Origin: an uncultured bacterium
Lineage (GTDB): Bacteria > Armatimonadota > UBA5829
Length of the DNA stretch: 64,000 nucleotides
NCBI GenBank assembly: GCA_964523735.1
Contig: CAZFYZ010000001.1
Coordinates: forward strand, 10,672 to 74,671
Direction of reading: 5' to 3'
Of the stretch, positions 218-31,888 are shown piece by piece. The translations under genes and the position numbers were made by a program. The number at the start of each line of letters is the position of its first letter. Position 1 is the stretch's first letter. The notes under the pieces were generated by a model. That model had not been told where the DNA came from and did no database searches. It worked only from the letters and a program-made list of their open reading frames with translations.

Positions 218-515
218 GTCAGGCTTAGCACCGCGCGTGGCCCAGTCTATATAGCGCATGGAGGCGACGCACAATCCGGCCTCCAGAAGGAGGTGGGTGA
301 CTATGACCAGCAGTCTAACACCCGCCCCTGGAGCAGGGCGCCGGTAGTGACGACCCGGGCAAATGCTCCGCCTGGCCGCCGGTTTCGCTCGGCGGCCAGG
401 CATAGGTACACTGCAGGGGCGAAGCATTTGCTGCCAGGGGTTTGTCCGCAGAGAAGAGCCCCTGACGCCTGCCAGGGGCGTCAGAGACGCCCGCTACAAC
501 TCTATCGCAACAGCC

Positions 516-1613
516 TCACTTCTGCGGCCAGTCTATGATCAGCGTATCGCCTTGCACATAGCAGGTCAGGCCGTTCTGCCTCAGGAGAGACTCCAGCGCC
601 TGCGAGAGTGGCACGTTGTTGTAGTTCAGGGTGTAGGTCACCTCAGGCAGCGCGGGCAGGATCCGGTAGTTCACCCCCGCGTCGGAGAGAAGCTTGCCGA
701 TGGCCCCAGCCAGCGGCAGGCTGCTGATGGAGGTCGTGACTGTCTTCGTGCCGATCAGCGGATTGGTCTTGTCCACGGTCTGCCCCATTGGCTCGATCAC
801 GATGACGTTACCCTCAACATGGAACGCGAAGCCCTGGTTGCGCAGGGCTGATTCCAGCGCCCCAGCGAGCGGCACATTGTTGTAGCTGAGGCTGATCGTC
901 GGGCTTTGGGGGAGGGGCGAGGTGAACCGGTAGTTCACCCCTGCATCTCTGAGCAGCTTTTCAATGGCCTCGTTGAATGGCAGGTTCTGGATGTTGTTGT
1001 TGACGCGTATGTCGGCCAGCCACTGCGGAACATCGATGTTGCTGCCCGTGCCCATGAATCCTGGCATGACTCCGCTGCCGGTCATTGAACCGCTGGATGT
1101 GCTGGTCGTTGTCGAAGTGCTGGTCTGGCAGTCTCCAGAGCCGCCGCTCACACCTGCTGAGGCTCCTCCCCAGCCGCCCCCGCCTGCGCCGCCTCCAGCC
1201 ATGCCACCGGCGGATCCGGACGTCATTACTCCGGACGACATCCCGGTCCCACCCATCTGCAGCCCGATTGCCCCTCCGGGGGTGGCCGCGTCGATGACCA
1301 CAACGTCACGATCCACGAAGTACTTGAGCCCCTGCGATGGCAGGAACATGTCCAATACCATGCCGAGTGGCACATTGCTGAAGCTCGTGCTGATCGCGCA
1401 GTTCGTCGGCAGTTGGGGCAGCACCTTGTACTTGACTCTGGCGGACTTGAAGATCTGGTCGATTGCGACGGGGAGTGTCTGGTTCTGTACGCTGGTGTTG
1501 ACCATAACGTTATTAAGCCAAGCGGGGGGGGCCTGGTTCTGCGAGGCGCACGGCGCGGTGCAAATGCCGATCAAGACTGTGCAGTAGGCGATGCCCAATG
1601 CTATGGTTCTCAT
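516..1613 (-). CDS. Secreted protein with three tandem ~75-aa STN / secretin-N0-like repeats separated by a Gly/Ser/Thr/Met-rich linker
   Basis: The N-terminal signal peptide is MRTIALGIAYCTVLIGICTAPCASQ. The repeated units are ...IQNLPFNEAIEKLLRDAGVNYRF...ISLSYNNVPLAGALESALRNQGFAFHVEGNVIVIEP, ...LPLAGAIGKLLSDAGVNYRI...YTLNYNNVPLSQALESLLRQNGLTCYVQGDTLIID and ...ISTSFSNVPLGMVLDMFLPSQGLKYFVDRDVVVID. The pattern (V/I)PLxxALxxLLxxxGLxYxVxGxxIxI matches the STN (secretin and TonB N-terminus) signalling-domain consensus. Its start codon is 1 nt after the anti-sigma stop (TGAgATG). Confidence 0.6.
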   Translation of the reverse strand: MRTIALGIAYCTVLIGICTAPCASQNQAPPAWLNNVMVNTSVQNQTLPVAIDQIFKSARVKYKVLPQLPTNCAISTSFSNVPLGMVLDMFLPSQGLKYFVDRDVVVIDAATPGGAIGLQMGGTGMSSGVMTSGSAGGMAGGGAGGGGWGGASAGVSGGSGDCQTSTSTTTSTSSGSMTGSGVMPGFMGTGSNIDVPQWLADIRVNNNIQNLPFNEAIEKLLRDAGVNYRFTSPLPQSPTISLSYNNVPLAGALESALRNQGFAFHVEGNVIVIEPMGQTVDKTNPLIGTKTVTTSISSLPLAGAIGKLLSDAGVNYRILPALPEVTYTLNYNNVPLSQALESLLRQNGLTCYVQGDTLIIDWPQK

Positions 1614-1614
1614 C

Positions 1615-2406
1615 TCAGAGCTCCTTTTGATTCCTGCTGATCTCGGGTTCGTATTGTATCAGCTGCGCGTCATCTGCTACTCCGGAAATCCGCCGTTTCT
1701 CGCGGTAGATCGTGACGGCGCCGGTGGACGGGTCTACGCGGGTGATCTCCATCGAAGACTCCCCAACAACGAACTGCCCTGGGCCGACTCGCGGCGGTGC
1801 CGGCGTCCTCACCACCTGCGTGTCATCGGGCAGAGCCACTTGAGCGTCCTGCTCCGGCTTGGGCTTGAGCGGCTCTGTGACCGAGGCCTGGTTACCCGGC
1901 TGCAGGTTTCTCCTCACTGACGGGACAGGTGCTCGCCTGGAGTGCTTAGCTACGGCTCGTGGTCGAGGTGTTCCCGGCACGTTGACTCTACGTGTTTGGA
2001 GAGCAGTCTGCTGGTTATCCGGCACGTCAGTGACTTTGACTTTGGGAGTAGACTGCTTAATGGCGGTCTGATTGATACCGCCCCGATGCTTGTCCTGCGC
2101 AGGACCCATAAGCAGCGTCGCGCAACAGACAACCACCAGCAGGATCACTGCTGACGCAAGCACCGGCACGAGCCATCTTCGCGGCTGCCTCGCGTAATCG
2201 GGGAGTTGCAAGAGGGCCAGTTCGTCGGGAACCGGCAAATGCTCCCATGGCCCCGAGAGTGCTTCCGCATCCGTCCTGTGCTTCTTGTATTCGGTGGAGC
2301 AAGCCTCGCACTCGGCCAAGTGCTTCATTGCATCATCAGCAAGCCACGAATCCAGTTCACCAGCGGCCAGTTCCGGCATTATCTTAGCGAGCTTCCGGCA
2401 GTTCAT
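1615..2406 (-). CDS. Membrane-anchored anti-sigma factor (zf-HC2-like N-terminus, one TM helix, Pro-rich periplasmic region)
   Basis: The ORF track gives 1615..2484, but the likely start is the internal Met (MNCRKLAKIMPELAAGELDSWLADDAMKHLAECEACSTEY...) at 2406, whose ATG overlaps the TGA stop of the upstream ECF sigma gene (ATGA). The HxxxCxxC-type motif (HLAECEAC) is typical of zf-HC2 anti-sigma factors. One hydrophobic TM segment (WLVPVLASAVILLVVVCCATLLMG) is followed by a Pro/basic-rich region. Confidence 0.65.
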   Translation of the reverse strand: MNCRKLAKIMPELAAGELDSWLADDAMKHLAECEACSTEYKKHRTDAEALSGPWEHLPVPDELALLQLPDYARQPRRWLVPVLASAVILLVVVCCATLLMGPAQDKHRGGINQTAIKQSTPKVKVTDVPDNQQTALQTRRVNVPGTPRPRAVAKHSRRAPVPSVRRNLQPGNQASVTEPLKPKPEQDAQVALPDDTQVVRTPAPPRVGPGQFVVGESSMEITRVDPSTGAVTIYREKRRISGVADDAQLIQYEPEISRNQKEL

Positions 2407-2960
2407 CTCCCCAACTCCTCGTGCTTTCGTCTGAACGCTTCTCGCGCCCTGTGTAAGCGGCCTCTTGCAGCTTGCGGCGAGCATCCCAGGGCGTCGGCCA
2501 GCTCCTGGCTCGACAGGCCCTCGATATAGAACAGCACCAAAGCTGTTCTGGCGTCCGCCGGCAAGCAGTTCATCAAGTCCATGACACTGCTCTCATCGCG
2601 GCCGGTCTGCTCCGGCTCTGGAATCTGTTCCTGAATGTCTCTGCGTCGCGACTCTTTGCGCGCGTGGTCGCAGCAGATGTTGATCGCGATCCGGCAGACC
2701 CACGATCTGAAGCTCGACCTGCCCTGAAACGACCGTATTGACTTGTATGCCCGTATGAATGCCGTCTGAGTAGCATCCACGGCATCTTCGGTGGAGCCCA
2801 GGACCCGCCGGCACACGTTGTAGATGAACTCCTTGTGCCGCTGGAACAGCTGGTCGAAAGCCTCGCGTCTGCCGTCCTGCGCGAGTCTGACGAGAAGCAG
2901 ATCCGTATCCTGCTCAGCCAAGCTCAATCCGAGAGTAGTCTCCATAGGCCCCGCACTCAT
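2403..2960 (-). CDS. ECF-family RNA polymerase sigma factor (sigma-70 regions 2 and 4)
   Basis: The translation ...LLLVRLAQDGRREAFDQLFQRHKEFIYNVCRRVLGSTEDAVDATQTAFIRAYKSIRSFQGRSSFRSWVCRIAIN... shows region 2 with FxxW. The C-terminal ...ALVLFYIEGLSSQELADALGCSPQAARGRLHRAREAFRR is a region 4 HTH. The length is 185 aa, and the gene is translationally coupled to the anti-sigma gene. Confidence 0.85.
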   Translation of the reverse strand: MSAGPMETTLGLSLAEQDTDLLLVRLAQDGRREAFDQLFQRHKEFIYNVCRRVLGSTEDAVDATQTAFIRAYKSIRSFQGRSSFRSWVCRIAINICCDHARKESRRRDIQEQIPEPEQTGRDESSVMDLMNCLPADARTALVLFYIEGLSSQELADALGCSPQAARGRLHRAREAFRRKHEELGR

Positions 2961-3204
2961 GAGTGTTCAGAGTTAAGACGATGCGATGGCAGGCAAATGT
3001 TACGTGGTTCGGACGCCAACCAGTGTAATTTCGCATCTATTCTACAACGGGTGGGGACCACGCGCGCAGACAATGTTGGCGTGATGGATGGCTGCTGCGG
3101 GAGCTGCGTAGGAGAAGTGGCCGGCGGGTGCTTGGCGGCAACGTTACGGCCGGCAAGCGGGGGCTGGGATCTCTCACTTTCCGAAAGCGGCTGCACATAG
3201 ACGA

Positions 3205-3274: not shown

Positions 3275-6200
3275 CTACTGGTTGTACACTTCCAGGCTTA
3301 TGCCTGGCAGGCCAGTGTTACCCAGGCTGCCTCCGCCTCCGGCGAATGGCGCGAAGATGAACTCGTTGGCTCCGACAGTGATCGGCGAGTTGAACGCAAA
3401 TATGCATATCGAGGGGCCGCCAGGGCCTCCTGAGCCGTGGCCGCCGTTACCGCCCTTGCCCCCGACTCCGCCGTTGCCACCCGCGCCGATCTCGTCCGTA
3501 TCAAGCGCCGCTCCGTAGCCGCGTGACCCGCCATTGCCGCCAGCGCCGCCGGCGCCTCCGGCCCCGCCTATTCCGCCACTTCCGGAAGTGAGTTGGTTGC
3601 TGTCTACTGTGGCGACCGCATTAGCGATGAAGACAGCGAACGATCCGCCGCCGCCCTGACCGCCGCTGCCTCCCGCGCCCGCAGCGCCTCCGCCACCGCC
3701 ACCGCCTCCGCCGTTGCCGGAGCCGTCGATGACAAAGAAGCCGGACTGTGCGCCACCGCCGCCTCCGCCTCCGCCGCCGCCGCCGTTGCCGCCGGTGGAG
3801 CCATTACCGCTGGTCGGAGGGAGATACATCCCGTCGGCGACGGTGCCGATTGCCGAGGCTTGCGCGCCGTTCACTCCGTCAGCTCCGTCAGCGCCGTTTT
3901 GCCCGTCGCCGCCGCGCTTGCCGGGGTTGCCCCACGCGCCGCCGGATCCGCCATAAGCGCCACCCGCTCCATATCCGCCCGCCTGGCCGTTATGCTCGCC
4001 CGCAACGCCGCCCTGGCCGCCATATCCGCCAAACATGCCGCACGCAGAGTTCCCGTATGCGCCTCCGTAACCGGGCGGTGTGCCATCGCAGTTGCCGTTT
4101 CCCCCGGGACCACCCTGGCCTCCGGCTTGGCCGGCCGGCCCAGCAACGCCATCCGCGCCGACAGCCCCGCTCCCGGCAGCAATAGCATTACAGCTCAAGA
4201 CCACGTTGCCGGTTCCGTTGCTGATGAGCACGCCATAGCTGCTGCCGCCGGCAGTTGTTGCGTTGGCTGAGAATATGCTGAAGCCCTCGATGTGCGTTTC
4301 CTGGGTGATCGCGTTGGCTGAGATAGCCACAGTCCCGCCAATGATGCTGGTTATGTTGCTCAGCGACCGGCCCCAACGTGCTGTCCCGTCGTAGAGGCCG
4401 TAGATGCTCACGCCAGATTGCATTGCCAGTGTGCCGCCGGTTGGCGAGTAGGCTCCGGCCGCGACGTAAACGTCTTTTCTTGGGGAGGCGGCAGCAGCGA
4501 GCTCGATGCCTCTTTCAATTGTGGCCACCGGCCTGTCGAGGGTGCCTGAGTTCGAGTCGCTGCCCCACGGGCTCGGCGCGACGAAGACTGCGCGCGATAT
4601 GTCACCATCGATGCCGTCGCCGTTGGTGTCCTCGAAGAGGCAATCAGGCCTGTCGGGCGTGCCGTCCCCTGTCATTACCGATATGTCCGACGTAGAATTT
4701 GCGAGCACAACGGGTAGTGACTCTGACTCGTGCAGATACATCGAGGATATCCCGGTTGCAGTTACCTGAGTTCCGGCCTTGGGCACCGGCATGGTCGGCA
4801 GCATCACCCTTATGCCTGCTCCTCCCAGCGGATCAGCTGGGAGTCCTTCGGGCTGGGTGACCGGACCATCCCAAATGTCGATGAACTCTCCCTCTGGATC
4901 GACGTAGGAGACATGCCCCACGACCTTCACGAGCAGGCCGATGTTGTTCAATCCCACTCCGCCCTTGATGCCCTTCTGTCCCCTGCCCGAATCGGTATCA
5001 TAGTTGAGGTCAGCTCCGCCAATTGAACGCGGAGCCATCAACAGCGGCCTGACGATCCCCGACCCCATTGGGATGACGGAGGTCGGCTCGATGTATCTCT
5101 CGCCGGCGTCATTGGTGCGCATGGCCCCTCTGATTCTGACGGCGCTGCCCTCAGTGATGGTCTGGAAGGTGCCCTGGACCCTGATCCCGGAAGAGCGATC
5201 GGGCGATCCGATGTAGAAGAAGCCGGGCCAGATCCTGCTGACGATACCGTCGGGTATGTCCACGTCCGATCCGTCGCCCAGCAGCTTTCCGCCGCTGACG
5301 GTTGGGGCGATGACGGTAAGCGCCGCTGTGCTGGACGCGAAGGGTGCTCCGCCTGCCGGAGTCATCAGGACGTCATATCGGCCCGCGTCGTCTATCTGGA
5401 CCTGGCTGATTACCAGCGTGTCGAGCTGTGTTCCCGAGACTCGTCCTGATTCCTGAAGAGGGATTCCGTTCTTGCGCCACTGGATCGCGCAGTCGCCGCT
5501 CAAGCCTATTCGGAAGACGGCTGTCCCGCCTACCGGCGCAGTGAATGGCTGGGGTTGCGCTGTGATCACGACAGCCGGACCCACCTGAATGTACGCAGTC
5601 GCGATGTTGCTGAAGACGGGGTTCTGGGTCTCCCCCTCGTAGTTGCCACGCGCGACATACTGGAACGAGTCCGTGCCTGTGAAGCCTGCGGGAGGCTGGT
5701 AGGAGAAACCTCCCTCACCGTCGGCGCTGAAAATCACAGTTCCGCCTTGAGCCGTTGTCCGCTGCCCGCCCGGCTGGCTCGACTGGTCGAACACGGCCAC
5801 GACCTCGTAACCAACGTGTTCGGGGCTGATAGTGGGCTCCGGGGCATCGTTGGCCAGCACGCCGGCGGACGAGGCGACTGCCAAAGCACCGCCGGCAGCG
5901 ATGTAGTGATCGTCGTTTGCGAGCTGAAGCCGTCCCGGCTGAATGTCTGCCAGAGCAGCCAGAGCATACTTGATATAGGGGTGACTCTCCGTCGACTGCG
6001 TTGAATCGGGCGCAGCAGCCGTGTCGAGGGCAGTCTGCAGTGCACTCGCCCTCTCAGCCATCAGTCCGATCAGATCGGGCGCAGCGTCAGGGATAGCTGT
6101 TGCCGCGTCCTGATAGACTCTGCTGACGCCGTCTTTGCCAAGCCCGATCCCGTCGCCCTTCAGCAGGCCCCGCAGGAGCTGGTTTCTGTCCATGCTCTGG

Positions 6201-8869
6201 GGGAAACCGAGGCTTACGTAGGCCTCGATCAGCGCCTCTGTGCCTGCAAGTTCGCGTCCCAGCGGATAGATCGCGCTCGTGCCTCCCGCGATCTCGCTCA
6301 CGACTCGCGTGTAGTACTCCTGCTGGAGGCTCTTGAACAGCGCCTGCATCTGCTGCTCAACCGCGGCTTTTCTTGCAGCGTCGGGTTCATGCATGCCGCC
6401 GGCCAGGATTGCGTCCAGCGCCCTCTGGCGAAGATTCTGGTTGCTGGTCCAGAAGGAGTAGACATAGTAGAGGTAACTGTCCCAGACATACGGGGCGGGA
6501 TTCGGGTATGCGTAGTCACCTTTGAGGACGATGTAGTCGCTGCCAATAGCGTGAACTCCGCCGTATATCTGGACCTTGCCGTTGGATGGATCTTCGTGCC
6601 ATAGCGTAACCTCTGCGGCGGGAATGGCCATCAGCATATAGGCACCAAAGTTCGGTATGACAAGCTTGTCGTACCAGTAAGGCCGCACTCGTGCGTGCAG
6701 TGTCCCGAGGTTCAGTAGGTGTTGGTTATTGAAGAGCTGGAACTGACTGAACTTGGCCAGATGTGAGGCGGTCAGATCAAACGAGGAGAGAGAGTTGACG
6801 CCGTCCTGCCTATAGGCAGTCATGCTTATGTTGGTCGGCCAGTCGGGAACCACTTGCGACGGACTGCCGTACATATCGAGCGACTCCTTCAGTACACCGT
6901 CCTTCGGAGTGAGCTGTGTCGTCTCCCGAAGCACCGTTGTCTGCAGGTCGTCGATCGCGGTCGCCATCTGCGCGGTCACGTCACCATGGTGCTGCATGAG
7001 CGCGGTCAGCAGAGGCCGGTTGCCGAAGTTCTGCAGCGCCGACTTCACGCGCTGCCCTTCCTGCGTGATCAGCGCTAGTCGGTTCGGGTCCTTGTAGGCG
7101 TAGAACCACGGGTTCTCCCTGGCAAGCTGTGCATACGCGTTTGCGGCGGTAGCCCAAGCAGTCGGGTTCGCGACACGAGTGGAGTACAACGGGTTTGTCG
7201 TCAAGCCCTGGTCGCGGGGGAACAGCCTCAGGTTGTTGACGCTGTAGCCGTAGTTGGCTTGGTTGAGCATGTTCGCGTCGGCTGCGTTAATGAATGTGAG
7301 TTCGCTCGTGCCGGTTGTAGGCCCGGCCAACAAGCTCGAGAGGACCTCGGTTGTGGCGCGAGTGTAGATAGTGGTCTCGGCAGTGACGAATGACACATCA
7401 CCCTCATAGGGCAGGTCCCAGCCGTTGTTGTTCTGCTTGTAGGCTAGCGAGCCGTCAATTGCCTGCACGAAGCTCTGTTGGTAGCCGTCCGCGAGAGCTC
7501 CGAAGAGGTTCTGGTTGAGCCGGTCGAGGTCGGACTGCAGTTCGAGCACCGAGCTTCTGATCGCGGCAAGGCTGACCTGGACATCGCCAAGCTGGTAGAG
7601 AATCTGGTCCAGACCCCTGTCGATCGTGTCGAACCGGCTGTTGAGCTGCTCGTGCATCGCGAGCATCTGCTGGCGCATTTGGACCACCTGATCCAGCAGG
7701 TCCTCGAGCTGCTGCGTGGTCTGATCTGCCCCAAACAGCCCGGCTGATACACCGAAGATGTCGGACAACCCGAGAATGCCATGGCTGATCGTCATGGGAC
7801 TTGGCTGGGCGAAGGCCAACGCTACTCTGCTTATCCCACTAGCGACCTTTGTGACATCAGCGGCATACTTGGAGATCGTCGCGGCCGTGCTCGCCTGCGA
7901 GTCGTCGCCGGCCACGATCATCACCGCAAGCTCCGCGTGGACGCGGCTGCGGATACCGTTCAGGGCCTCGACGTCCTCGGCTCTTTGAGCACGGGCGGCG
8001 TTGAGCAACTCGATGTTGGGGTTGACGAAGGAAGCCAGGTAGTTCGACTTCTGAATAGCGTCCACCTGAACCGCCGTTTGGACCAGCCCCGGCATGGAAT
8101 CAACCACTGCCCCAGCGTGCGTGATCGCGTCCTGGCAAGTGGGCTGAAAACCCTGCGCCCTCAGCGCCTCAAGCGCCGCATAGTCGGCAGGCAGCGCCGC
8201 CATGGCCGCCGCAACATCGGGATAATGCTCGGCCATAGTGGCTGGCAGCGGGAAAGGGTCGAACCCCTGCGAACTGAGGTAGTGTAGGAACGCGACCCGC
8301 ACGATCGCCTTCGATTCCCCATTGGCATCGAGTCCCAGGAAACCGTAAGTCAGCACCACGTTCAGTTCGGCGCTGTTCGCCAGGTCGAACCCCTGCTCGT
8401 TCACGAAACTCATCAACTTCGTGAGCTGAGTAGCGAGTTCATCCTTGTGCAGGCCGAGCATCTGGAGTATCTCGAGGCCGAAATCCGCCCGCATGCCCGG
8501 CTGCTTAGCCGAGCGAACGCCGAACCTCATCTCCGTCAGGAAGTCGATGGGGATCATCAGGTCGGGGTCATTCGGATTCATCGAACGAATGTGCGCGTCG
8601 AACGCGTTGGCGAAGGCGTCCAGCTGCTCGAGTGTGGCGTTGGGGTTCTCGGCCGCAGCCTGCAAAATGGAGGCGAGCACGCCGACAACCCGATGGTTCG
8701 GCGAGCGCGCCAGGTCTGTCATCACTACCTGACTCGCAGAAATCGCCTGCTTAAGCCTGAGGTAATCGGCCTGGCTTTGTACCTGGAGATCAGGCCGGGG
8801 CAGATCGGCCAGGGCCGAAGTGACCAGAATGAGGGCCGGAATGGCCAGAAGTGCAGAGTGCCTAAACAT
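3275..8869 (-). CDS. Giant secreted multidomain protein (~1865 aa): helical N-terminal region, cadherin/VCBS-like domain, Ig-like domain, parallel beta-helix, and a very long Gly-rich (GGxGGxG) low-complexity C-terminal region
   Basis: The ORF track gives 3275..9112. The likely start is the Met at 8869 (MFRHSALLAIPALILVTSALA, a signal peptide) preceded by GGAGG. The cadherin/VCBS-like motif is VLANDAPEP...GGTVIFSADGEGGFSYQPPAGFTGTDSFQYVARG. The Ig-like (I-set-like) segment is ...GRYDVLMTPAGGAPFASSTAALTVI. The beta-helix-like repeats read ...TVAISANAITQETHIEGFSIFSANATTAGGSSYGVLISNGTGNVVLSCNAIAAG. The C-terminal ~600 aa are dominated by G/A/N/Q/S with runs of GGGGGGGGGG. Confidence 0.75.
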   Translation of the reverse strand: MFRHSALLAIPALILVTSALADLPRPDLQVQSQADYLRLKQAISASQVVMTDLARSPNHRVVGVLASILQAAAENPNATLEQLDAFANAFDAHIRSMNPNDPDLMIPIDFLTEMRFGVRSAKQPGMRADFGLEILQMLGLHKDELATQLTKLMSFVNEQGFDLANSAELNVVLTYGFLGLDANGESKAIVRVAFLHYLSSQGFDPFPLPATMAEHYPDVAAAMAALPADYAALEALRAQGFQPTCQDAITHAGAVVDSMPGLVQTAVQVDAIQKSNYLASFVNPNIELLNAARAQRAEDVEALNGIRSRVHAELAVMIVAGDDSQASTAATISKYAADVTKVASGISRVALAFAQPSPMTISHGILGLSDIFGVSAGLFGADQTTQQLEDLLDQVVQMRQQMLAMHEQLNSRFDTIDRGLDQILYQLGDVQVSLAAIRSSVLELQSDLDRLNQNLFGALADGYQQSFVQAIDGSLAYKQNNNGWDLPYEGDVSFVTAETTIYTRATTEVLSSLLAGPTTGTSELTFINAADANMLNQANYGYSVNNLRLFPRDQGLTTNPLYSTRVANPTAWATAANAYAQLARENPWFYAYKDPNRLALITQEGQRVKSALQNFGNRPLLTALMQHHGDVTAQMATAIDDLQTTVLRETTQLTPKDGVLKESLDMYGSPSQVVPDWPTNISMTAYRQDGVNSLSSFDLTASHLAKFSQFQLFNNQHLLNLGTLHARVRPYWYDKLVIPNFGAYMLMAIPAAEVTLWHEDPSNGKVQIYGGVHAIGSDYIVLKGDYAYPNPAPYVWDSYLYYVYSFWTSNQNLRQRALDAILAGGMHEPDAARKAAVEQQMQALFKSLQQEYYTRVVSEIAGGTSAIYPLGRELAGTEALIEAYVSLGFPQSMDRNQLLRGLLKGDGIGLGKDGVSRVYQDAATAIPDAAPDLIGLMAERASALQTALDTAAAPDSTQSTESHPYIKYALAALADIQPGRLQLANDDHYIAAGGALAVASSAGVLANDAPEPTISPEHVGYEVVAVFDQSSQPGGQRTTAQGGTVIFSADGEGGFSYQPPAGFTGTDSFQYVARGNYEGETQNPVFSNIATAYIQVGPAVVITAQPQPFTAPVGGTAVFRIGLSGDCAIQWRKNGIPLQESGRVSGTQLDTLVISQVQIDDAGRYDVLMTPAGGAPFASSTAALTVIAPTVSGGKLLGDGSDVDIPDGIVSRIWPGFFYIGSPDRSSGIRVQGTFQTITEGSAVRIRGAMRTNDAGERYIEPTSVIPMGSGIVRPLLMAPRSIGGADLNYDTDSGRGQKGIKGGVGLNNIGLLVKVVGHVSYVDPEGEFIDIWDGPVTQPEGLPADPLGGAGIRVMLPTMPVPKAGTQVTATGISSMYLHESESLPVVLANSTSDISVMTGDGTPDRPDCLFEDTNGDGIDGDISRAVFVAPSPWGSDSNSGTLDRPVATIERGIELAAAASPRKDVYVAAGAYSPTGGTLAMQSGVSIYGLYDGTARWGRSLSNITSIIGGTVAISANAITQETHIEGFSIFSANATTAGGSSYGVLISNGTGNVVLSCNAIAAGSGAVGADGVAGPAGQAGGQGGPGGNGNCDGTPPGYGGAYGNSACGMFGGYGGQGGVAGEHNGQAGGYGAGGAYGGSGGAWGNPGKRGGDGQNGADGADGVNGAQASAIGTVADGMYLPPTSGNGSTGGNGGGGGGGGGGGAQSGFFVIDGSGNGGGGGGGGGAAGAGGSGGQGGGGSFAVFIANAVATVDSNQLTSGSGGIGGAGGAGGAGGNGGSRGYGAALDTDEIGAGGNGGVGGKGGNGGHGSGGPGGPSICIFAFNSPITVGANEFIFAPFAGGGGSLGNTGLPGISLEVYNQ

Positions 8870-9283
8870 CTCTCTCCTCCGTACGCACGTTTGCGACACG
8901 GAGAGGTGAGATACATCCCCGTGTCTCGCAATCGGAAGCTTTCGTCGCTTATCCTGGCACGTTCTGGAGGGTTCACGCTGAAGCGTGCTGGACTTCGTGC
9001 GGCGAGTATTACGGGGTCTCCAACTTCTGAGGCCAACTGGAGTGTAGCCCAGGAATGCCTGGCTGTCAAGGGGTGGGGAGGAGGCTGAGTACTTGGCGTC
9101 CCAGCATTCCACAAGCCAGAGGTCCCTTGCAGCCAGCGACCACGAATCCGGCAGGCCCCTGCGGGAACTCTGGCTTGTCCAGCACTGCTAGCTTGTTGTC
9201 AGCATCGTTCCCGCAGTATGGCTTGGGACTGCAGATCGCTCATCCGTGTGTTGGCCCTGGGGAACATGCAGGCGAAGAGGCTG

Positions 9284-11044
9284 CTACTGCGCGCTTTGGA
9301 TGCGGCGCAGCATTTCTTTGGAATCGATGTAGCCTGTCACGCGTGATGAGGTGACTTCCTTGCCTGAGGAGTTTATGAAGACGATTGTGGGCAGGCCCTT
9401 TACGTTGTACTTGCGCATGGCAGTGGTTTCGGCGCGGTCCTGCTTAGTGGCATCCACGCGCAGGCGAACGAATGACGAGGTCGCCTTGACTACCTTCTGA
9501 TCGGCGAATGGCCCGTGCTCAAGCTTCTTGCAGTAGGCGCACCAGTCGGCGGTGAAGTCGATCATAACCGGCTTGTGCTGCTTCACGGCCTGCTGGACGG
9601 CTTTCGGGGAATACGGCTGCCAGGTCATTACGGACTTCTTCGCCGTCGGCGACGCGAGTGCCACGGCAGCTACCAGGGCCAACACGCCGAATGCCTTGCC
9701 CACAGATGCCGTAGCGGGTGTCGTTTTGATCGACTTCTCGAAGAACCCGAGATAGATCCCGCCAACTATCACGATTGCCGGTATCATGTATCTCTGCCAG
9801 GCTTCCGGCGCGAGCGGCATCACGAAGTACGCCGCTGCTCCGATGAGCAGGAACCCCGCGACCTTCTTTACAGCTACCATCCACATGCCCGGAACGGGCA
9901 TTCTGGCGGAGAATGTGGCGAGCACAAAGAGCGGTGTTCCCAGCCCGATGGCTAAGGCAAAGAAGAGCACAAAGCCCATCGCCGGACTTCCCAGCTTCGC
10001 CACGTACAGGAGCAGCCCGAGCACGACCGGTCCCACGCAAGGGGCGGCCACGATCCCGAATATCAGGCCCATGAACAGCGCGCCAAGGATTCCGCTCCTG
10101 GCGGACGCCTTGCTCTCGATGAATGCCGGTGGTCTCAGCTCATACAAGCCGAACATAGACATTGCGAGCGCCAGCAGTACGAGCGCGATTCCCAGCAGCA
10201 CCACGGGGCTCTGCATCGCCGCGCCAAAGACGCCGCCTGTCGTGGCCGCGACTGCCCCGAGCGTTGAATAAGTAAGCGCGATTCCCAGCACGTATGCCGC
10301 GGCCAAAGGCATGACACGCCTGGTGCTTGACTCATGCTGCCCGCTGAAGTAGCCGACTGTCACGGGGATCATGGGATAGACACAGGGAGTAAACGCAAGC
10401 AGCAGGCCCAACCCAAAGAGCGTCAAGAGGCGCAGGGGCAGCCCCCGCTTCTCGAGGTCAGCAGCGAAGTTGTGGTCCTTGGAGGTCGCCGCCGTCTCAG
10501 CCTTTTGGTGGCCGAAGACGCTGCCGTTGATCTTCTTGACCGGCGTGCCCTTCGGAGCGATCTTCACCGTGAGCTTCGAGTTGACAGTCTCCGGCGGGAA
10601 GCACTGGTCCTCTTTGCAGCCCTGCGAATCGAACCTGGACTTGATCGTGATCGCGCCTGTCTTCGCGCCCTGGCGGACACGCCCCTTGACTTTGATCACG
10701 AACGTATCCTCGTAAACAGGCAGCTCCTGGCCTGGCGCAAGCGGCGAACTGATGCGCTTCGGCAGCGGGTAATGCACCGGATCGAGGATCAGGGCCTTCG
10801 GAGCATCTATCTTGAGCTTGGCAGGATAGAGCGAGTCCTTATGTGCGGCGCCAATGTGGTACCCGGCCGTCACTTTACCCTTGAACGCAAGCTCAAAGGA
10901 ATCCCCTGGCCGCAGCTTGTTGGCCGAGAGAAGCAGTTTACCTGTGACGATCCGCTCGGATTCTTGTGCCAAGCTCGAGCCAGCAACTGCGAAGAGCGCA
11001 AGTAACACCACTAACAAGCGAAGACTGTGTCTAATCATTTCCAT
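9284..11044 (-). CDS. dsbD: Thiol:disulfide interchange protein DsbD-like (N-terminal periplasmic domain, multi-TM core, C-terminal thioredoxin domain with WCxxC)
   Basis: A signal peptide is present. The central region has about 8 TM helices with conserved Cys residues (…AFTPCVYPMIPVT… and …VAAPCVGPVVLG…). The C-terminal thioredoxin fold carries DFTADWCAYCKKLE. Confidence 0.8.
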   Translation of the reverse strand: MEMIRHSLRLLVVLLALFAVAGSSLAQESERIVTGKLLLSANKLRPGDSFELAFKGKVTAGYHIGAAHKDSLYPAKLKIDAPKALILDPVHYPLPKRISSPLAPGQELPVYEDTFVIKVKGRVRQGAKTGAITIKSRFDSQGCKEDQCFPPETVNSKLTVKIAPKGTPVKKINGSVFGHQKAETAATSKDHNFAADLEKRGLPLRLLTLFGLGLLLAFTPCVYPMIPVTVGYFSGQHESSTRRVMPLAAAYVLGIALTYSTLGAVAATTGGVFGAAMQSPVVLLGIALVLLALAMSMFGLYELRPPAFIESKASARSGILGALFMGLIFGIVAAPCVGPVVLGLLLYVAKLGSPAMGFVLFFALAIGLGTPLFVLATFSARMPVPGMWMVAVKKVAGFLLIGAAAYFVMPLAPEAWQRYMIPAIVIVGGIYLGFFEKSIKTTPATASVGKAFGVLALVAAVALASPTAKKSVMTWQPYSPKAVQQAVKQHKPVMIDFTADWCAYCKKLEHGPFADQKVVKATSSFVRLRVDATKQDRAETTAMRKYNVKGLPTIVFINSSGKEVTSSRVTGYIDSKEMLRRIQSAQ

Positions 11045-13200: not shown

Positions 13201-15663
13201 ATGACCTCCCACAAAACCGTAGCCCGCGCGGCGGGGCTGATGATGGTGGCGATACTCGCCAGCAGGCTCCTCGGCCTTATCCGCGATATGCTCATCGCCA
13301 GCCAGTTCGGTTTGACCGGACTGGTAAGCGCCTACACCGTTTCGTTCAACCTGCCCGATTTGCTCTACTTCTTCCTCTCGAGCGGAGCGCTGTCGGGCGC
13401 CTTTATCCCGGTCTTCACCGAGCGATATCAGACCGACCGCAAGCGCGAGGCGTGGGAGATATTCTCGATCATCGCCTGCTTCATGGGCCTGGTGCTGATG
13501 ACTGTGATCGTGATCAGCGAGGTCTTCACAGAGCCGCTCGTGCGCTATCTGGCCGCACCGGGCTATGCCGACCCCAAGTATCAGGAGCTCTTCAGGCTGA
13601 TCGTTCACTTGACACGCATCATCCTGCCCTGCCAGTTGTTCTTCTTCCTGGGCGGGCTGATGATGGGCACACTCGAGTCGAGACAGGACTTCAGGGCTCG
13701 AGCGGCGGGGCCGGTAATCTACAACCTGGGGATTATCTTTGGTGTAGTGATCCTCTCCAGGTGGTTCAGCATTGCGGGGCTTGCGTGGGGAGCGATGATT
13801 GGGGCCTTCGCGGGGAACGTGGGCTACACGTTCTACTGCCTCAAGAAGTCGGGCTTCGAGTTCTACCCGAGCCTCAATCTGAGGCATCCTGGAGTCAAGA
13901 AGGTCGGGATGCTTGCGCTACCAGTTATACTCGGCCTGAGCTTGCCGCAGATCGACGTGATCATCAACCGCTGGTTTGCGACCTATGTCTCAGACATTGC
14001 CCCTGCCGCCCTGAATTATGCGAACCGGCTGATGCAGGTCCCGCTAGGGGTTTTTGCGCAAGCTGCCGGAACGGCCATTCTGCCGACGCTATCAGCCTAT
14101 GCGGCCCGAAACGCCATCGACGACCTCCGCAACAGCGTCAGCTTCGGCCTTCGCGCCATTCTTGCTATCAACATACCCGCATCGGTATTTATGGTGGTGA
14201 TGGCCGATCCGATCGTGCGCACCGTCTACATGAGCGGCGAGTTCAGCCCATCGAAAGTGCCCGCGACCTCCATCGCTCTGATCTGCTACTCGGTCGGCAT
14301 CTTCGCCTGGGCGGGGCAGGCTATAGTCGCGCGGGGCTTCTTTGCCATGCAGGACACGATAACCCCGGTCGTGCTTGGAACGGTCGCCACGATCATCTTC
14401 ATCCCGTTGAACTTCATCCTTGCCCGTGTGATGGGTCATGGGGGGCTGGCGCTGGCGACTTCCATCGCCGCGACCATTCATCTCCTTGCGCTGACAGTCT
14501 TCCTTCGGCGGCGTCTGCAAGGGCTTGAGGGAGGCAAGCTTCTTTCCAGCACCGCAAAGATCTTGATCGCTACAGCTGTGATGGGCGCGCTCTGCATTGG
14601 GGTCAGGGTAGGAATGTCCCGGACTCTCGGTACTTGGCAACTTCAGGAGGGTGATGTTCGCGACCCGACAGAGCTTGCGCTGCAGTTGGGCTGGGATCGC
14701 ACTCCACTGACGCACTACCTGGACTCGCAGATGTCCAAAGAGACAAAGGCGAAGCGTGCGAGTGCATTCAGAGCTGCATACCAGTCGTATCGGATCGAAG
14801 CCGAGGTGGAGGACTTCCTGCAGACGATCGTTTGGAGCCGCGACTTCTACGACGATGAGCGATTTGAGGATGTTTCGATCAGCGGTCGTACGCAGGATCT
14901 GGTTCATCAGCGCCCCACGAGAGGCTCTTCCTTGTGGCGCATGAACCGAGGCCTACTTGAGGCCGCCTACCCTCAAGCATTTGTCAGGATCGCCGACGTT
15001 TCCTCGGTTGCGAAGTGGTTGGAGCCTGCGGATCGGGACCATAGAGGATCAGGCGGTGATCGATGGCTGATTCAAGAAGGCGACATAGTGGATCTGGAGT
15101 CCCTCGCGCACGAGCTTGTGAACAAGGAGAATCCGGTCTCAGTGTATCTGCTTTCGGAGATGCCTCACGGCCTCCGAACTGGCCTGAGGAGCTATGTCGC
15201 CGATGCTGACGCCGCGAGGGGCCTGGACACGTCCCTTATGCATGACCTCAACAGGGTTATCCGCACAAGTCGCTTGTACTCGCCGGAGAGGTTTGGTCAG
15301 CCAACTGAAACAGGCACGACACCTGGCGATGTACGGTTGAGCGAGGAACTCCTGGTTCGAGCCAGAGTAACCCGCGGAGGCCAGGCACTACCGGAGATCA
15401 ACCGCCGTCTTCTCGAAGAAGCGTTCCCCGACCAGATCGCCAAGCGACCGATCGACCGTGTCGAAGGAAGAATGGGCTCTCTGATCACTGTCCTTGTGGC
15501 CATGGCGCTGTCCACGGTCGTCTACCTGCCTCTGCTGAAGCTGACGCGGGTGGAGGAAGTGGACGCGATCTGGGGTGGGCTCCGCCGGAAGCTTTCCAGA
15601 AGGCAGCCGATGCCACCGGACACCATTGATCAGCCCGAGACACGACCGGCCGATGAGTCTTGA
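13201..15663 (+). CDS. murJ: Lipid II flippase MurJ (MviN) with an unusual ~300-aa C-terminal extension
   Basis: The N-terminal ~520 aa form a typical MurJ/MOP fold (MTSHKTVARAAGLMMVAILASRLLGLIRDMLIASQFGLTGLVSAYTVSFNLPDLLYFFLSSGALSGAFIPVF...). The extension contains two related ~130-aa segments (LQEGDVRDPTELALQLGWDRTPLTHYL... and IQEGDIVDLESLAHELVNKENPVSVYL...) and a terminal hydrophobic helix (MGSLITVLVAMALSTVVYLPLL). Confidence 0.8.
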   Translation: MTSHKTVARAAGLMMVAILASRLLGLIRDMLIASQFGLTGLVSAYTVSFNLPDLLYFFLSSGALSGAFIPVFTERYQTDRKREAWEIFSIIACFMGLVLMTVIVISEVFTEPLVRYLAAPGYADPKYQELFRLIVHLTRIILPCQLFFFLGGLMMGTLESRQDFRARAAGPVIYNLGIIFGVVILSRWFSIAGLAWGAMIGAFAGNVGYTFYCLKKSGFEFYPSLNLRHPGVKKVGMLALPVILGLSLPQIDVIINRWFATYVSDIAPAALNYANRLMQVPLGVFAQAAGTAILPTLSAYAARNAIDDLRNSVSFGLRAILAINIPASVFMVVMADPIVRTVYMSGEFSPSKVPATSIALICYSVGIFAWAGQAIVARGFFAMQDTITPVVLGTVATIIFIPLNFILARVMGHGGLALATSIAATIHLLALTVFLRRRLQGLEGGKLLSSTAKILIATAVMGALCIGVRVGMSRTLGTWQLQEGDVRDPTELALQLGWDRTPLTHYLDSQMSKETKAKRASAFRAAYQSYRIEAEVEDFLQTIVWSRDFYDDERFEDVSISGRTQDLVHQRPTRGSSLWRMNRGLLEAAYPQAFVRIADVSSVAKWLEPADRDHRGSGGDRWLIQEGDIVDLESLAHELVNKENPVSVYLLSEMPHGLRTGLRSYVADADAARGLDTSLMHDLNRVIRTSRLYSPERFGQPTETGTTPGDVRLSEELLVRARVTRGGQALPEINRRLLEEAFPDQIAKRPIDRVEGRMGSLITVLVAMALSTVVYLPLLKLTRVEEVDAIWGGLRRKLSRRQPMPPDTIDQPETRPADES

Positions 15664-21537: not shown

Positions 21538-23532
21538 TTACTTAGAGTTGCCGTTTAGCGCGGATAGCTGCGCAGAGAGATAGTTGCCCTGATCCTGCAG
21601 CTTGGCCAACTGAGATTCCATCGTGTTGAACTGCGAGTAGAGGCGAGCCTCCTGAAGCGCCAGGCGCTCCTCCATATCCGCGATGCTTTCCTCGACATCA
21701 CCAATTGCGTCGGTGAGTGACTGCTCTGCCGTTGTGATTGAGCCATTGGTCGAGGTCATGTTATCGATCAAATCTCTCAGGGTGGCAGCGGCGCCCTTGG
21801 TGTAGGTCAGAGTGGCAGTCATGGGGGCGGGAGACGTGATCAGTAGCGAAATCCCCTTGGCGCTGTTCTTGACCTCATCGCCGCTCAGGGTGAGCATCTG
21901 CCCGTTTCCGGTTGCCTCCACGCCGTTGATCGTGCCGGCCACATCCAGCCCGAGCAGGCCTTGGCCAAGGCCGCTTTCACCCGCCCATGCTCCTTCAACG
22001 GTGCATGCCTTCACATTGCCTACTCCGGTCGTGCCGGCAGTCGTATATGACAGGTTGCTGGCTACCTCGACATTGCGTTTGCTGCCAAAGCCTGTCTGAC
22101 GCAGGGTCAGGTAGTTGCCGGCGCCTGTCCCGTCGGCGCCAGTGGCAAGCGCGGTGACGCCGGTCGTGTTCGAGTAGCTGTTGATCCTGTCCACCACTTC
22201 CTGCAGCGTCATGTTTTGGGTAAGCGTGATGGTAGTGCCGTTGACGGTGAGGGTCTCATCTTGTGCCAGGTTGGCGTCCATCGCCGCCCCGGCTGTCAAC
22301 TGCGCACGCTGTGCTGCCTGAGTGATCGCAACCTCCCAGGCGCTGCCCGTCGGCTTTGTGTCCGCTGTGGAGGACAGATATGTTATGTGCGCGCTGCCGG
22401 AGTCTATGCCCGCGCTGAAGACCCGCATCACCTGCTGAGGGTTTCTGCTCAGTGCTTTGTCCAGATCAGCCTCGTTGACAACCAGATGCCCGCCGAAGTC
22501 CTGGGTTATTCCGATTGCCCCGAGAGCATTGTAGCTGCCGCTGAGGCCTACTACCGGGTTGGTTAGCCCACTGATGATCTCAGACTGGACTCCCCTCAAA
22601 CGAGAATCGCCAAAGAGAGCGCCGGTGAACCCGCTGTCAGGATCGTAATCGAACTGGTCATCAATAGCGTCAGCCAGATCATTGTACTGGGCAACAAAGT
22701 CCTGTATGGCTTCCTTGATGGTTGCCGTGTCTCTTGCAACATCTATGCGAACTGCAGTGCCTGGGTCCGCGCCCAGCAGGTTCATCGTGACCCCCGGTAT
22801 CAGGTCGGAGATGCTGTTGGAGTCCTTGTAGACAGTTATCTTGCCGGCGCCTGTTCCAAGCTCGATCTGGGCCGGGGCGGCTGCCTGGACGGGATTCTCC
22901 AGATCGAAGAGCGGTGCAACGCCCCCAGAAAGGGTTGTGGTTACGGAGAGCATCTTATTGGTCTCACCGCCCTGCGTAGCAGTGAGAAGAAGACGGTAGT
23001 CGGGTTCGCTTTCGGTGCCGCTGTTTACGACCGTGGCCTGGACGCCGCTTCCGGCCTTGTTGATCGCGTCCTTGAGACCTGCGAGAGTATTATTGCTGGA
23101 ATCCAGGGTGACTTTGAGGTTGGTCCCATTGTTGAGAGTGATGTTGACATCGCCGGTCCCAACTACGTCGTTGAGGTTTGTGTAGACTCCCCCTTGCGAG
23201 GATACCTGGTGGTTCACCGCGCGGGAGACTACCGTGACGTAGTAGGTGCCCGTGGCTGCCGTATTGGATGCGGAGGCAGTAAGGATGTCCGAATGGCTCG
23301 ACGATGCGGTGGCAAGGCTGAAGTCCGAGGCGTCGGCAATGGCCGCCACTCTGGTCTTGACTGCGAGAATGCGCGTGTTAAGATCTTGCCAGGCAGTCAG
23401 GCGCTCTTGGTACTGGGCCTTCTGGTTCTCGAGCTGCTTCTGCGGCCTGCGCGCGTAGCCCATGATCTTTGAGATAATATCGTCCGTTTGGAGGCCCGAT
23501 ACAAGACCATTGACGGACATCATTCCAGCCAT
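21538..23532 (-). CDS. fliD: Flagellar filament cap protein FliD (hook-associated protein 2)
   Basis: The N-terminus is MAGMMSVNGLVSGLQTDDIISKIMGYARRPQKQLENQKAQYQERLTAWQDLNTRILAVKT. The C-terminus is ...EERLALQEARLYSQFNTMESQLAKLQDQGNYLSAQLSALNGNSK. Both are typical of FliD. Confidence 0.85.
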   Translation of the reverse strand: MAGMMSVNGLVSGLQTDDIISKIMGYARRPQKQLENQKAQYQERLTAWQDLNTRILAVKTRVAAIADASDFSLATASSSHSDILTASASNTAATGTYYVTVVSRAVNHQVSSQGGVYTNLNDVVGTGDVNITLNNGTNLKVTLDSSNNTLAGLKDAINKAGSGVQATVVNSGTESEPDYRLLLTATQGGETNKMLSVTTTLSGGVAPLFDLENPVQAAAPAQIELGTGAGKITVYKDSNSISDLIPGVTMNLLGADPGTAVRIDVARDTATIKEAIQDFVAQYNDLADAIDDQFDYDPDSGFTGALFGDSRLRGVQSEIISGLTNPVVGLSGSYNALGAIGITQDFGGHLVVNEADLDKALSRNPQQVMRVFSAGIDSGSAHITYLSSTADTKPTGSAWEVAITQAAQRAQLTAGAAMDANLAQDETLTVNGTTITLTQNMTLQEVVDRINSYSNTTGVTALATGADGTGAGNYLTLRQTGFGSKRNVEVASNLSYTTAGTTGVGNVKACTVEGAWAGESGLGQGLLGLDVAGTINGVEATGNGQMLTLSGDEVKNSAKGISLLITSPAPMTATLTYTKGAAATLRDLIDNMTSTNGSITTAEQSLTDAIGDVEESIADMEERLALQEARLYSQFNTMESQLAKLQDQGNYLSAQLSALNGNSK

Positions 23533-23693
23533 CTTGATCCCTCGTTTTTGGAGTGCCGGTTAGCGGCTAGAGGCTAGAACGTCGCCCTCTCGGGGATGCC
23601 TAACCTCCAGCACCAAGAACTCAGCCTGCGGGCCGCTCTCGAGCGACGAAGAATCCGGTTTTGCAGCCACGTCGGCTTTGCACTCTAATAAGA

Positions 23694-23720
23694 GGCTGGG
23701 CCGGAAATACCGGCCCAGCC
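23694..23720 (-). terminator. Intrinsic terminator candidate after flagellin 1: perfect 11-bp stem GGCTGGGCCGG-aaata-CCGGCCCAGCC
   Basis: Read directly from the sequence. It starts 11 nt downstream of the flagellin stop (TAA at 23731-23733) on the minus strand and is followed by UCUUAUUAG. Confidence 0.6.
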
Positions 23721-23730
23721 TGGCAATCGC

Positions 23731-25167: not shown

Positions 25168-25595
25168 AGCGATTCCTCCCTGAAATGCTATCGCCAATCC
25201 ATGGCGCATCGGCTCTTAGCCGACAAACGTTGGGCGGCTAGTTCTCTACCAGGCTTGCCATCGGCTGCCCCGTAATACTCCGGAAGCCTGGGCCCGCTCA
25301 GCTGACATGGAAACCATGTCCGCAGCGGGCGGACGACCATCCTTGAGCCCGATCCGCTGCCGCCATCCGACGCATTTCAGTAAGGGTACTCCACGTAGAA
25401 GTATCGACCTTGGTGCGGCGGCACTTGAGCTGCTCGCGGAGCCGGGCCAGTTCTGTCGGCCTGAATGGTTCTCAATCTACCATTTGCTTCTTCCATGAGA
25501 GACCGCTCGCAATAACACCAGATTTTCAAAAAAATCACTGCGTGCCATGGGCCATCCGAGTGGCGCCAGTTGGTCGCGCGTCGCCTGCCTCGCCG

Positions 25596-25640
25596 CCACC
25601 AAAAAGGCGGGCGCCGAACTCCAAAGGAGCCCGGCGCCCG
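25596..25640 (-). terminator. Intrinsic terminator after flagellin 2: stem GGGCGCCG...CGGCGCCC followed by CCUUUUUGG on the minus strand
   Basis: Read directly from the sequence. It lies 30-70 nt downstream of the flagellin 2 stop (TAA at 25669-25671). The loop itself contains a small CUCC-UUU-GGAG hairpin. Confidence 0.65.
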
Positions 25641-25668
25641 GTTGAGAATGAGGTCCTGGTTGTTCTGC

Positions 25669-27102: not shown

Positions 27103-27529
27103 TTTGGTCTTTCCTCCTTGAACGATTGCTCGTTGTCCTGTCGCGACTGACTTCCTGTCAGCTCAAGGACGTTTACGGCGCCTGCCGGAGCAGGCTTCTC
27201 CTACCTACTACATCGACTACGTGCGGACGCGGCATTAGCATCTTTTTTGGGAATTTCAGGGGTGCCAGGAGGCCTAGCTGATCCACGCTCTACACCTTGC
27301 TTGAGTCCGTCTGCGCTGAGTAGCGGCAGCATATCGAAGCGCCGCGCCTGGGCATTCGGTAGGGCACGGCTGCCAATGCTGTGCGGGGTGGTGGGAGTTG
27401 GCCAGCGTGGATGGTTCTAGATGAGACGTGATGAGCTGGTCCGGACGTGACAGAGGGTGGTACCGTACTTAGGTATCAGACGGCACAGAAGGCAGGAAGA
27501 TGGCCAGGCTAGCCTCTTGCGGATGGATT

Positions 27530-27754: not shown

Positions 27755-27784
27755 CTTGAGTGCTTCCTTTCACTCGTGCGGCCC

Positions 27785-28264: not shown

Positions 28265-28284
28265 CTTAACCTCCATTGCCCTCA

Positions 28285-29202: not shown

Positions 29203-29326
29203 ATGGCTTACCTACTGGGGCTGTTGCGGAGCTGTAGCGGGCGTCTCTGACGCCCCTGGGAGGCGTCGGAGACGCCTGCTACAACTGCGGATCACAGAAG
29301 AGCGATCTATCGCAACTGCCTCCTAC

Positions 29327-30679: not shown

Positions 30680-30684
30680 TGAGG

Positions 30685-31191: not shown

Positions 31192-31195
31192 GCTG

Positions 31196-31483: not shown

Positions 31484-31489
31484 GGCTTC

Positions 31490-31864: not shown

Positions 31865-31888
31865 CGGGCTGAACCTGTCACCTGTCCC

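Follow-up and report, generated by a model that had tools for sequence, protein, structure and literature searches.

Organization of the three-gene locus

The stretch of DNA analyzed here, 64,000 nucleotides from an uncultured member of the Armatimonadota (contig CAZFYZ010000001.1, positions 10,672 to 74,671) and hereafter called the window, carries three minus-strand open reading frames (ORFs) between positions 516 and 2960 that encode a sigma factor of the extracytoplasmic function (ECF) type, a single-pass transmembrane anti-sigma factor, and a secreted protein composed of several STN domains. An initial annotation had described these genes as a translationally coupled operon akin to cell-surface signalling systems. 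The chaining of the genes that it reported can be read directly from the sequence. The sigma stop codon (TGA, 2405-2403) overlaps the anti-sigma start codon (ATG, 2406-2404) in an ATGA junction, and the anti-sigma stop codon (TGA, 1617-1615) is followed by a single g at 1614 and then by the ATG of the STN protein (1613-1611), which yields the junction TGAgATG. Both internal starts are preceded by Shine-Dalgarno-like GGAG runs.

A putative ECF-type autoregulatory promoter, GTAACA-N17-CGTC(T), lies upstream of the sigma gene on the minus strand at 2977..3003, and GTAACA-N17-CGTCT at this position is the sole match across the 64-kb window. The orthologous sigma gene of a close relative (locus L008) is preceded by a promoter motif with identical hexamers and spacing, and a similar motif, TTAACA-N17-GTCTAAC, is found 5′ of the sigma gene at locus L010, from an Armatimonadetes metagenome-assembled genome (MAG; GCA_023474015.1). 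From these sequences we infer that the motif at 2977-3003 functions as a sigma-dependent promoter. Matches to a relaxed form of the motif at 19737, 42626 and 60820 were discarded, as they fall inside ORFs and their number is near chance expectation. At the other end, an intrinsic-terminator-like hairpin with a 12-bp stem and a T-rich tail (458..488, minus strand) lies 28 nt past the stop codon of the STN gene; a hairpin terminator was found after the third gene only, closing the three-gene unit. With its own promoter-like motif on the 5′ side and a hairpin terminator on the 3′ side, the unit looks like an autoregulated operon.

The sigma and anti-sigma factors

The sigma gene (2403..2960, or 2403-2945, minus strand) encodes an RpoE/AlgU/SigW-like protein that matches Sigma70_r2 (PF04542, 8.5e-20), Sigma70_r4_2 (PF08281, 2.1e-14) and TIGR02937 (105.9 bits; cutoff 42.9), and thus has the regions 2 and 4 only, within ~180-200 aa, that define ECF (group 4) sigma-70 factors. 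The reading frame is open from the ATG at 2960 (185 aa), as the initial annotation had it, but the true start is probably the ATG at 2945 (METTLG; 180 aa), because L008 has GTG at the position equivalent to 2960 and its gene is called from METTLG, and because the sigma factor encoded beside the STN relative P0002 is 180 aa long. The closest solved structures are AlgU (6in7), sigmaE (1or7) and SigW (~1e-22). The best NCBIfam and PDB matches are of the RpoE/SigW/SigM/AlgU type, with no FecI model among the best 25 of 106 matches. The protein and its L008 orthologue share 94% amino-acid identity, with a ratio of nonsynonymous to synonymous substitution rates (dN/dS) of 0.07.

The anti-sigma gene (1615..2406, minus strand) encodes a 263-aa protein of the zf-HC2/ZAS type. 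Its match to Pfam zf-HC2 (3.6e-4) reaches 21.0 bits, slightly under the 22.2 threshold, and the remaining features assigned to it initially, the HxxxCxxC motif, the membrane helix and the Pro-rich tail encoded directly 5′ of the STN gene, are all present. AlphaFold2 models the cytoplasmic domain (residues 1-51; 2254..2406) as three helices with a predicted local distance difference test score (pLDDT) of 93-97. This domain contains the H29xxxC33xxC36 motif (nt 2299-2322), which is conserved in the family alignment and kept in all full-length family members. The helical N-terminal domain, the HxxxCxxC motif and the position directly 3′ of a sigma gene are those of class I ZAS/zf-HC2 anti-sigma factors; the protein is accordingly of the zinc-finger type by motif, and zinc binding and sigma inhibition are predicted. 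The best fold matches, M. tuberculosis RslA and RskA, are weak (E ~1). No FecR domain is present, zf-HC2 being the sole Pfam match at E up to 1. An identical protein is on record in the public protein collection (P0101).

A transmembrane helix at residues 79-99 (2110..2172), placed at ~78-100 by a hydropathy scan and also modelled as a helix by AlphaFold2, is followed by a Pro/Lys/Arg-rich periplasmic linker that is predicted to be disordered (residues ~104-212; 1771..2097; pLDDT <50) and then by a small conserved C-terminal beta domain (residues ~213-257; 1636..1770) with the motif RVDPSTGAVTIY..R..G. The pattern TG.xT...R..G is invariant in 10 family members and is the only family-invariant motif outside the cytoplasmic domain; a search with the C-terminal 64 aa gave no family match. 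Overall the window and L008 anti-sigma factors share 79% amino-acid identity (dN/dS 0.24), and selection is unevenly distributed over their length: the Pro-rich linker is relaxed (dN/dS 0.45), whereas the last 58 residues are constrained to the level of the sigma factor (0.07).

The triple-STN protein

The third gene (516..1613, minus strand) encodes a secreted protein of 365 aa. A hydrophobic N-terminal segment, kept in L008 and P0002, points to a signal peptide (residues ~1-24; 1542..1613) that is likely cleaved before QNQ. Behind it stand STN-like repeat 1 (residues ~30-109; 1287..1526), a Gly/Ser/Met/Thr-rich linker predicted to be disordered (residues ~110-193; 1035..1286; pLDDT 26-34), repeat 2 (residues ~194-276; 786..1034) and repeat 3 (residues ~283-362; 528..767), after which the protein stops without a plug or barrel. 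The whole protein matches the Pfam STN family (PF07660) at 2.9e-19 and 69 bits, against a threshold of 28.4. When the repeats are scanned singly, as the initial annotation had proposed, repeats 2 and 3 each score above this threshold (44.4 and 34.4 bits). The divergent repeat 1 gives no match alone, yet it is homologous to repeat 2 (37% identity, BLASTP 4e-19), is recovered by a hidden Markov model of the family (2.3e-13) and is predicted to fold in the same way. Identity between repeats 2 and 3 is 51% (5e-23), and the likeness among the repeats is far beyond chance. In an AlphaFold2 model built from a two-sequence alignment the repeats form three beta-alpha-beta-beta-alpha-beta-beta domains with pLDDT 70-90 and the linker is disordered; as modelled, each has the two beta-alpha-beta motifs that characterize the STN/N0 fold (PF07660 / SM00965).

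Two details of the repeat architecture differ from the initial description. The VPLxxxL...G(L/F)xxxVxxxxxxI motif does occur three times, as reported, but each repeat makes up a complete STN domain of ~80 aa with two beta-alpha-beta halves, and the LxxAL-type motif is therefore present six times, two per repeat. The Gly/Ser/Met-rich linker is also real; it separates only repeat 1 from repeat 2, however, repeats 2 and 3 being joined by ~15 residues, and its composition over ~85 residues is kept in P0002 and L008. The window and L008 proteins are 85% identical at the amino-acid level (dN/dS 0.18, and 0.09 for repeat 2), so that all three genes of the cassette are under purifying selection in this comparison. 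The secretin pore domain PF00263 is absent from the window STN protein, and no match to the MucB_RseB family appeared at E up to 1. A PDB sequence search with the STN protein returned low-complexity noise only, and a word-indexed protein search with the full sequence recovered only the query itself, probably because it was swamped by the Gly/Ser linker.

Multi-STN relatives

A HMMER scan of 1.84 billion representative proteins identified 100 relatives of the STN protein at E up to 1e-3. Two to five repeats are present in 96 of the 100, and about half consist of a signal peptide and STN repeats only; the stand-alone multi-STN architecture is thus by itself not new. The initial annotation gave a single N-terminal copy as the usual placement of STN domains, which is too narrow in view of these counts and also of FecR/PupR-type anti-sigma factors, which carry a C-terminal STN subdomain (PMC7186176). 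PF07660 is matched by 98 of 99 relatives, and the PF00263 secretin pore is present in three of 99. P0002 (44% identity) is the only representative laid out like the window protein, in which a long Gly/Ser linker stands between repeat 1 and repeats 2-3.

About 20 of the 100 relatives have a 260-370-aa C-terminal extension that is absent from the window protein and contains Secretin_N-like matches in some. In the sister-clade partners of the same anti-sigma family (among them P0003, P0004, P0008, P0011, P0013, P0016 and P0025; L010 1767-3371 is an example), 3-4 STN repeats come before a weakly matching Secretin_N-like domain, and ~150-250 aa more at the C-terminus show only faint secretin similarity; by sequence these proteins look like 'mini-secretin-like' proteins. 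STN repeats also occur as parts of larger polypeptides. In P0018 and P0021 they follow the last membrane helix, at the C-terminus of BlaR1/M56-type membrane metalloprotease transducers, and in P0069 (2,511 aa) they stand at the extreme C-terminus. In the distant relative P0047, encoded directly after an ECF sigma factor, a single polypeptide carries zf-HC2, a membrane helix and, on the periplasmic side, STN repeats.

Conservation of the gene cassette

The frequency of the cassette was sampled through 12 contig look-ups and is not a full count. The order sigma, anti-sigma, multi-STN protein was found in five other distinct loci (L008, L009, L010, and the contigs of P0002 and P0004), with genes that overlap or nearly abut; over these loci sigma identity falls to ~55% and STN identity to ~25%. 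Together with the fused form P0047, this bears out the expectation that the three genes are kept as a unit elsewhere. On the P0002 contig the 180-aa sigma factor is followed by a 241-aa protein with a 4-nt overlap and then by the STN protein, and on the P0004 contig a sigma factor of 184 aa is followed by a 281-aa protein and a four-repeat STN protein. On the short contigs of P0003 (L006) and P0008 (L007), the overlapping gene fragment upstream is the C-terminus of an anti-sigma-family protein; the L006 contig terminates within this upstream gene, and L007 shares one and the same STN gene with L010.

The anti-sigma family was retrieved with a profile of the window anti-sigma factor and the upstream fragments from L006 and L007. 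Its members include P0104 (which comes from a MAG labelled 'Armatimonadetes bacterium'), P0107 (a close relative, 82% identity) and P0110 (orthologue-like), and the contigs of three sampled members (L008, L009 and L010) all carry sigma, anti-sigma and STN genes. Approached from the other side, five of eight sampled STN relatives are linked to a sigma or anti-sigma gene. The association between multi-STN proteins and sigma/anti-sigma pairs is strong, not universal. Scans of genome and metagenome contig collections with the STN protein, with an alignment of P0001 and P0002, and with the anti-sigma alignment confirmed no relatives.

Two sequence features were noted upstream of the cassette in other loci. 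L010 has a long near-perfect inverted repeat at 120-215 (aatgcagaatgcagagtgcagaatgaaggg ... ccattctgcactctgcattcttcatt), just 5′ of the putative sigma promoter, which could either terminate the gene before it or act as a regulatory element. At the start of the L009 contig (1-30), 5′ of the sigma gene, stands a short tandem repeat, (GTGGAAA)x4.

A proposed periplasmic partner for the anti-sigma factor

Among alternative sigma factors the ECF family is the largest, and for the most part its input mechanisms are unknown. To our knowledge the sole established signalling role of STN domains is that of the N-terminal domain of TonB-dependent transducers that address FecR-type anti-sigma factors. The cassette described here appears to be a variation on envelope-to-gene signalling that has not been described before, with a free STN-repeat protein in the place of the usual outer-membrane receptor or RseB-type partner. 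We propose that the anti-sigma C-terminus has its periplasmic partner in the triple-STN protein, and that anti-sigma proteolysis is gated by this protein. The contact, its protective direction, the proteolytic route and the signal are our inferences, and we give the proposal as a whole an even chance of being right. It draws on the translational coupling of the genes, the existence of fusion proteins, the anti-sigma factor's co-conserved C-terminal domain, and published precedent for STN domains as protein-docking modules. The signalling domain of PupB binds the periplasmic domain of PupR, which itself ends in an STN subdomain (PMC7186176), and a free FoxA signalling domain shields FoxR against proteolysis and, when overproduced, prevents signalling (PMC11637429).

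In the proposed mechanism the RpoE-like sigma factor would be held at the inner membrane by the zinc-finger-type single-pass anti-sigma factor, whose ~110-residue Pro-rich linker would carry its small beta domain into the periplasm. There the co-translated STN protein would bind this domain through the beta-sheet and helix packing typical of STN-STN and N0-HR contacts, and would shield the anti-sigma factor from site-1 proteolysis, in the way that RseB acts on RseA, or the FoxA and PupB signalling domains on FoxR and PupR. An envelope cue that titrates or displaces the STN protein would then permit regulated intramembrane proteolysis, and the freed sigma factor would re-induce its own operon plus a further regulon. 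The linker between repeat 1 and repeats 2-3 could allow one end of the STN protein to grip the anti-sigma factor while the other end samples another ligand.

Several observations weigh against this proposal. The anti-sigma factor's C-terminal domain, on which the contact would depend, is modelled with three predicted strands at low confidence only (pLDDT 50-63), which may be what is expected of a small domain that folds on its partner, and the likeness between its window and sister-clade forms is limited to a short motif. Three of the sampled multi-STN relatives (P0006, P0012 and P0014) have no adjacent sigma factor, and the STN-repeat module is therefore not exclusively regulatory. The tally of anti-sigma relatives with an STN gene downstream (three of three sampled) is biased, because the query alignment (A5) held two fragments taken from upstream of STN genes. 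The promoter-motif scan of the window found no regulon members beyond the operon. Finally, codon 74 of the L008 anti-sigma gene (9731-9733; CAG in the window), just before the membrane helix, reads TAG in frame, which splits the gene into calls of 73 and 100 aa and, if real, would make the periplasmic part dispensable there. The region past this codon is still under strong purifying selection (dN/dS 0.07 for the C-terminal domain), so the stop would be recent, a population variant or an assembly error.

The main rival explanation reverses the direction of control and makes the STN protein an output of the sigma factor: an envelope scaffold or chaperone for secretins or other outer-membrane machines that bear N0/STN domains, co-transcribed with the sigma factor and stress-induced. 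The STN gene does lie within a probably autoregulated operon with no further promoter match in the window, DotD and VirB7, which have the N0 fold, serve as structural components of envelope machines, and the sister-clade forms, with their Secretin_N-like domain and C-terminal region, read as if derived from the periplasmic parts of a secretin; some multi-STN proteins are also encoded with no sigma factor nearby. Such an output role is harder to reconcile with P0047, in which STN repeats are built into the anti-sigma polypeptide, with the sensor position that they occupy in M56 transducers, or with the anti-sigma factor's conserved C-terminal domain, which is accompanied by an STN gene in every locus seen (L008, L009 and L010). 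The tight translational coupling, too, suggests a stoichiometric partnership. We consider this explanation unlikely.

The initial annotation had favored a true cell-surface-signalling relay, in which the STN protein would pass a signal from the giant secreted protein encoded upstream, or from a secretin, to the anti-sigma factor. The STN fold is indeed the signalling fold of TonB-dependent transducers (PMC7186176), the linker between repeat 1 and repeats 2-3 together with the Pro-rich anti-sigma tether could span the periplasm, and the giant gene is also adjacent to the cassette in L008. That gene is a separate transcription unit, however, and in L008 two opposite-strand genes, encoding methyltransferases, intervene; it was not seen beside the cassette on the P0002 or P0004 contigs, and no promoter motif in the window is common to it and the cassette. 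The absence of a TonB-dependent transducer, already stated in the initial annotation, holds for the operon, and in the window no TonB-dependent receptor and no secretin was found among the scanned ORFs (>=200 aa, that is, at least 200 aa, over 64 kb). Nor, on the evidence obtained, are the sigma and anti-sigma factors of the FecI/FecR type: the former is RpoE/AlgU/SigW-like and the latter zf-HC2-like without FecR, and the gene order resembles rpoE-rseA-rseB equally. A relay of this kind is improbable. A chance adjacency, in which the periplasmic repeat protein would have nothing to do with the sigma/anti-sigma pair encoded before it, is already disfavored and scarcely credible. In its favor, multi-STN proteins are found in other contexts too; against it, the same order of overlapping or near-abutting genes recurs in five other distinct loci, a zf-HC2-STN fusion protein exists, and a terminator follows the third gene only.

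Relation to known systems

By analogy, the cassette belongs with systems made up of an ECF sigma factor, an anti-sigma factor and a periplasmic accessory protein, and would use the STN docking principle known from cell-surface signalling. In the RseB/DegS/RseP pathway a periplasmic partner guards the anti-sigma factor against site-1 cleavage. The sigmaE-RseA-RseB and AlgU-MucA-MucB systems share with the window the succession of sigma factor, single-pass anti-sigma factor and secreted periplasmic protein, the translational coupling, and a sigma factor for which AlgU, sigmaE and SigW are the nearest among solved structures; the shielding logic that we propose for the STN protein is likewise modelled on them. 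The likeness to RseB and MucB lies in gene order and proposed logic only, as the third protein in the window consists of three STN/N0 domains, a different fold, and homology to RseB was rejected on this ground. In contrast to RseA, the window anti-sigma factor is of the HxxxCxxC type; its tether is long and Pro-rich, and its small beta domain is unrelated to the periplasmic domain of RseA. The cassette has no equivalents of the rseC or mucD genes of rpoE/AlgU operons.

With FecI-FecR-FecA, PupI-PupR-PupB and FoxI-FoxR-FoxA the cassette shares the pairing of an STN-fold domain with the periplasmic end of a transmembrane anti-sigma factor, and FoxA offers the further parallel that a free signalling domain can protect an anti-sigma factor from proteolysis (PMC11637429). 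The cassette, however, encodes neither a TonB-dependent barrel nor a plug or TonB box, its STN domains stand by themselves as a triple repeat, and the anti-sigma factor has neither a FecR domain (PF04773, FecR_C) nor an STN subdomain of its own. Membership in the Fec-type cell-surface-signalling class was rejected because a TonB-dependent transducer and a FecR domain are both missing.

Secretin N0 domains bind small beta domains that are carried on long linkers by inner-membrane proteins such as GspC and PilP. The window anti-sigma factor resembles these partners of GspD and PilQ (N0 with GspC HR, N0 with PilP) in having a membrane anchor, a linker that is long and either disordered or Pro-rich, and a small beta domain, the fold of which is in our case modelled at low confidence only. 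The GspD/GspC and PilQ/PilP contacts are structural ones in secretion machines and not regulators, whereas the window STN protein has no secretin pore; it was rejected as a secretin for want of the PF00263 pore domain. The uncharacterized multi-STN proteins, including the BlaR1/M56-STN and zf-HC2-STN fusions, belong to the same repeat family as the window protein. No paper describing STN proteins, stand-alone or tandem, that are coupled to pairs of ECF sigma and anti-sigma factors was found in the limited literature set consulted, which is absence of evidence only.

What sets the cassette apart is that a free, triplicated periplasmic STN protein is hard-wired to another class of anti-sigma factor and to an RpoE-like sigma factor in a poorly studied phylum, with fusions that tie the two together. 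If the proposed contact is true, the STN/anti-sigma docking principle would reach beyond iron-uptake signalling, the cassette would offer a minimal soluble system in which to study how STN domains gate anti-sigma proteolysis, and the many uncharacterized multi-STN proteins of metagenomes would gain a first functional handle. A broader and more doubtful generalization is that Armatimonadota-like diderms possess a TonB-independent class of trans-envelope ECF signalling. Stand-alone multi-STN proteins, or in the sister clades forms with a secretin-like extension, would there serve as cognate transducers that dock on a small beta domain held on the TonB-like Pro-rich tether of zinc-finger anti-sigma factors, and STN/N0 would be a general and portable module for docking on anti-sigma factors, older than its FecA-type use or parallel to it.

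Genomic neighborhood

The giant gene upstream of the cassette (3275-9112, minus strand, with a probable start near 8869) encodes a secreted protein of ~1,860-1,945 aa with a signal peptide. About 1,100 residues without a family match are followed by immunoglobulin-like domains (I-set 9.1e-9, Big_9) and by a Gly-rich C-terminal region with GGxGG runs. Its counterpart in L008, of 1,869 aa, lies after DsbD. The two opposite-strand genes between the giant gene and the sigma gene of L008 (7110-8830) encode S-adenosylmethionine-dependent methyltransferases; the window lacks this pair and has 314 bp of intergenic sequence at that position. The window contains no Rfam families, and no PADLOC defence families were found in it.

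The window also carries DsbD, MurJ, and flagellar and exopolysaccharide clusters. The flagellar cluster (21538-35419, minus strand) comprises FliD, two flagellin-family genes, FlgK, the FlgI P-ring protein and FlgA; the presence of FlgI indicates that the host is a diderm. The exopolysaccharide cluster (43908-60490, plus strand) includes a flippase-like gene, several GT4/GT2 glycosyltransferases, a Wzy-like gene, an aminotransferase, Poly_export/SLBB, Wzz with a tyrosine-kinase-like ATPase, and Polysacc_synt_2. The MurJ-family ORF (13201-15663, plus strand) encodes 820 aa, in which the MurJ domain occupies residues 32-476 and is followed by a C-terminal extension of ~340 residues without a family match.

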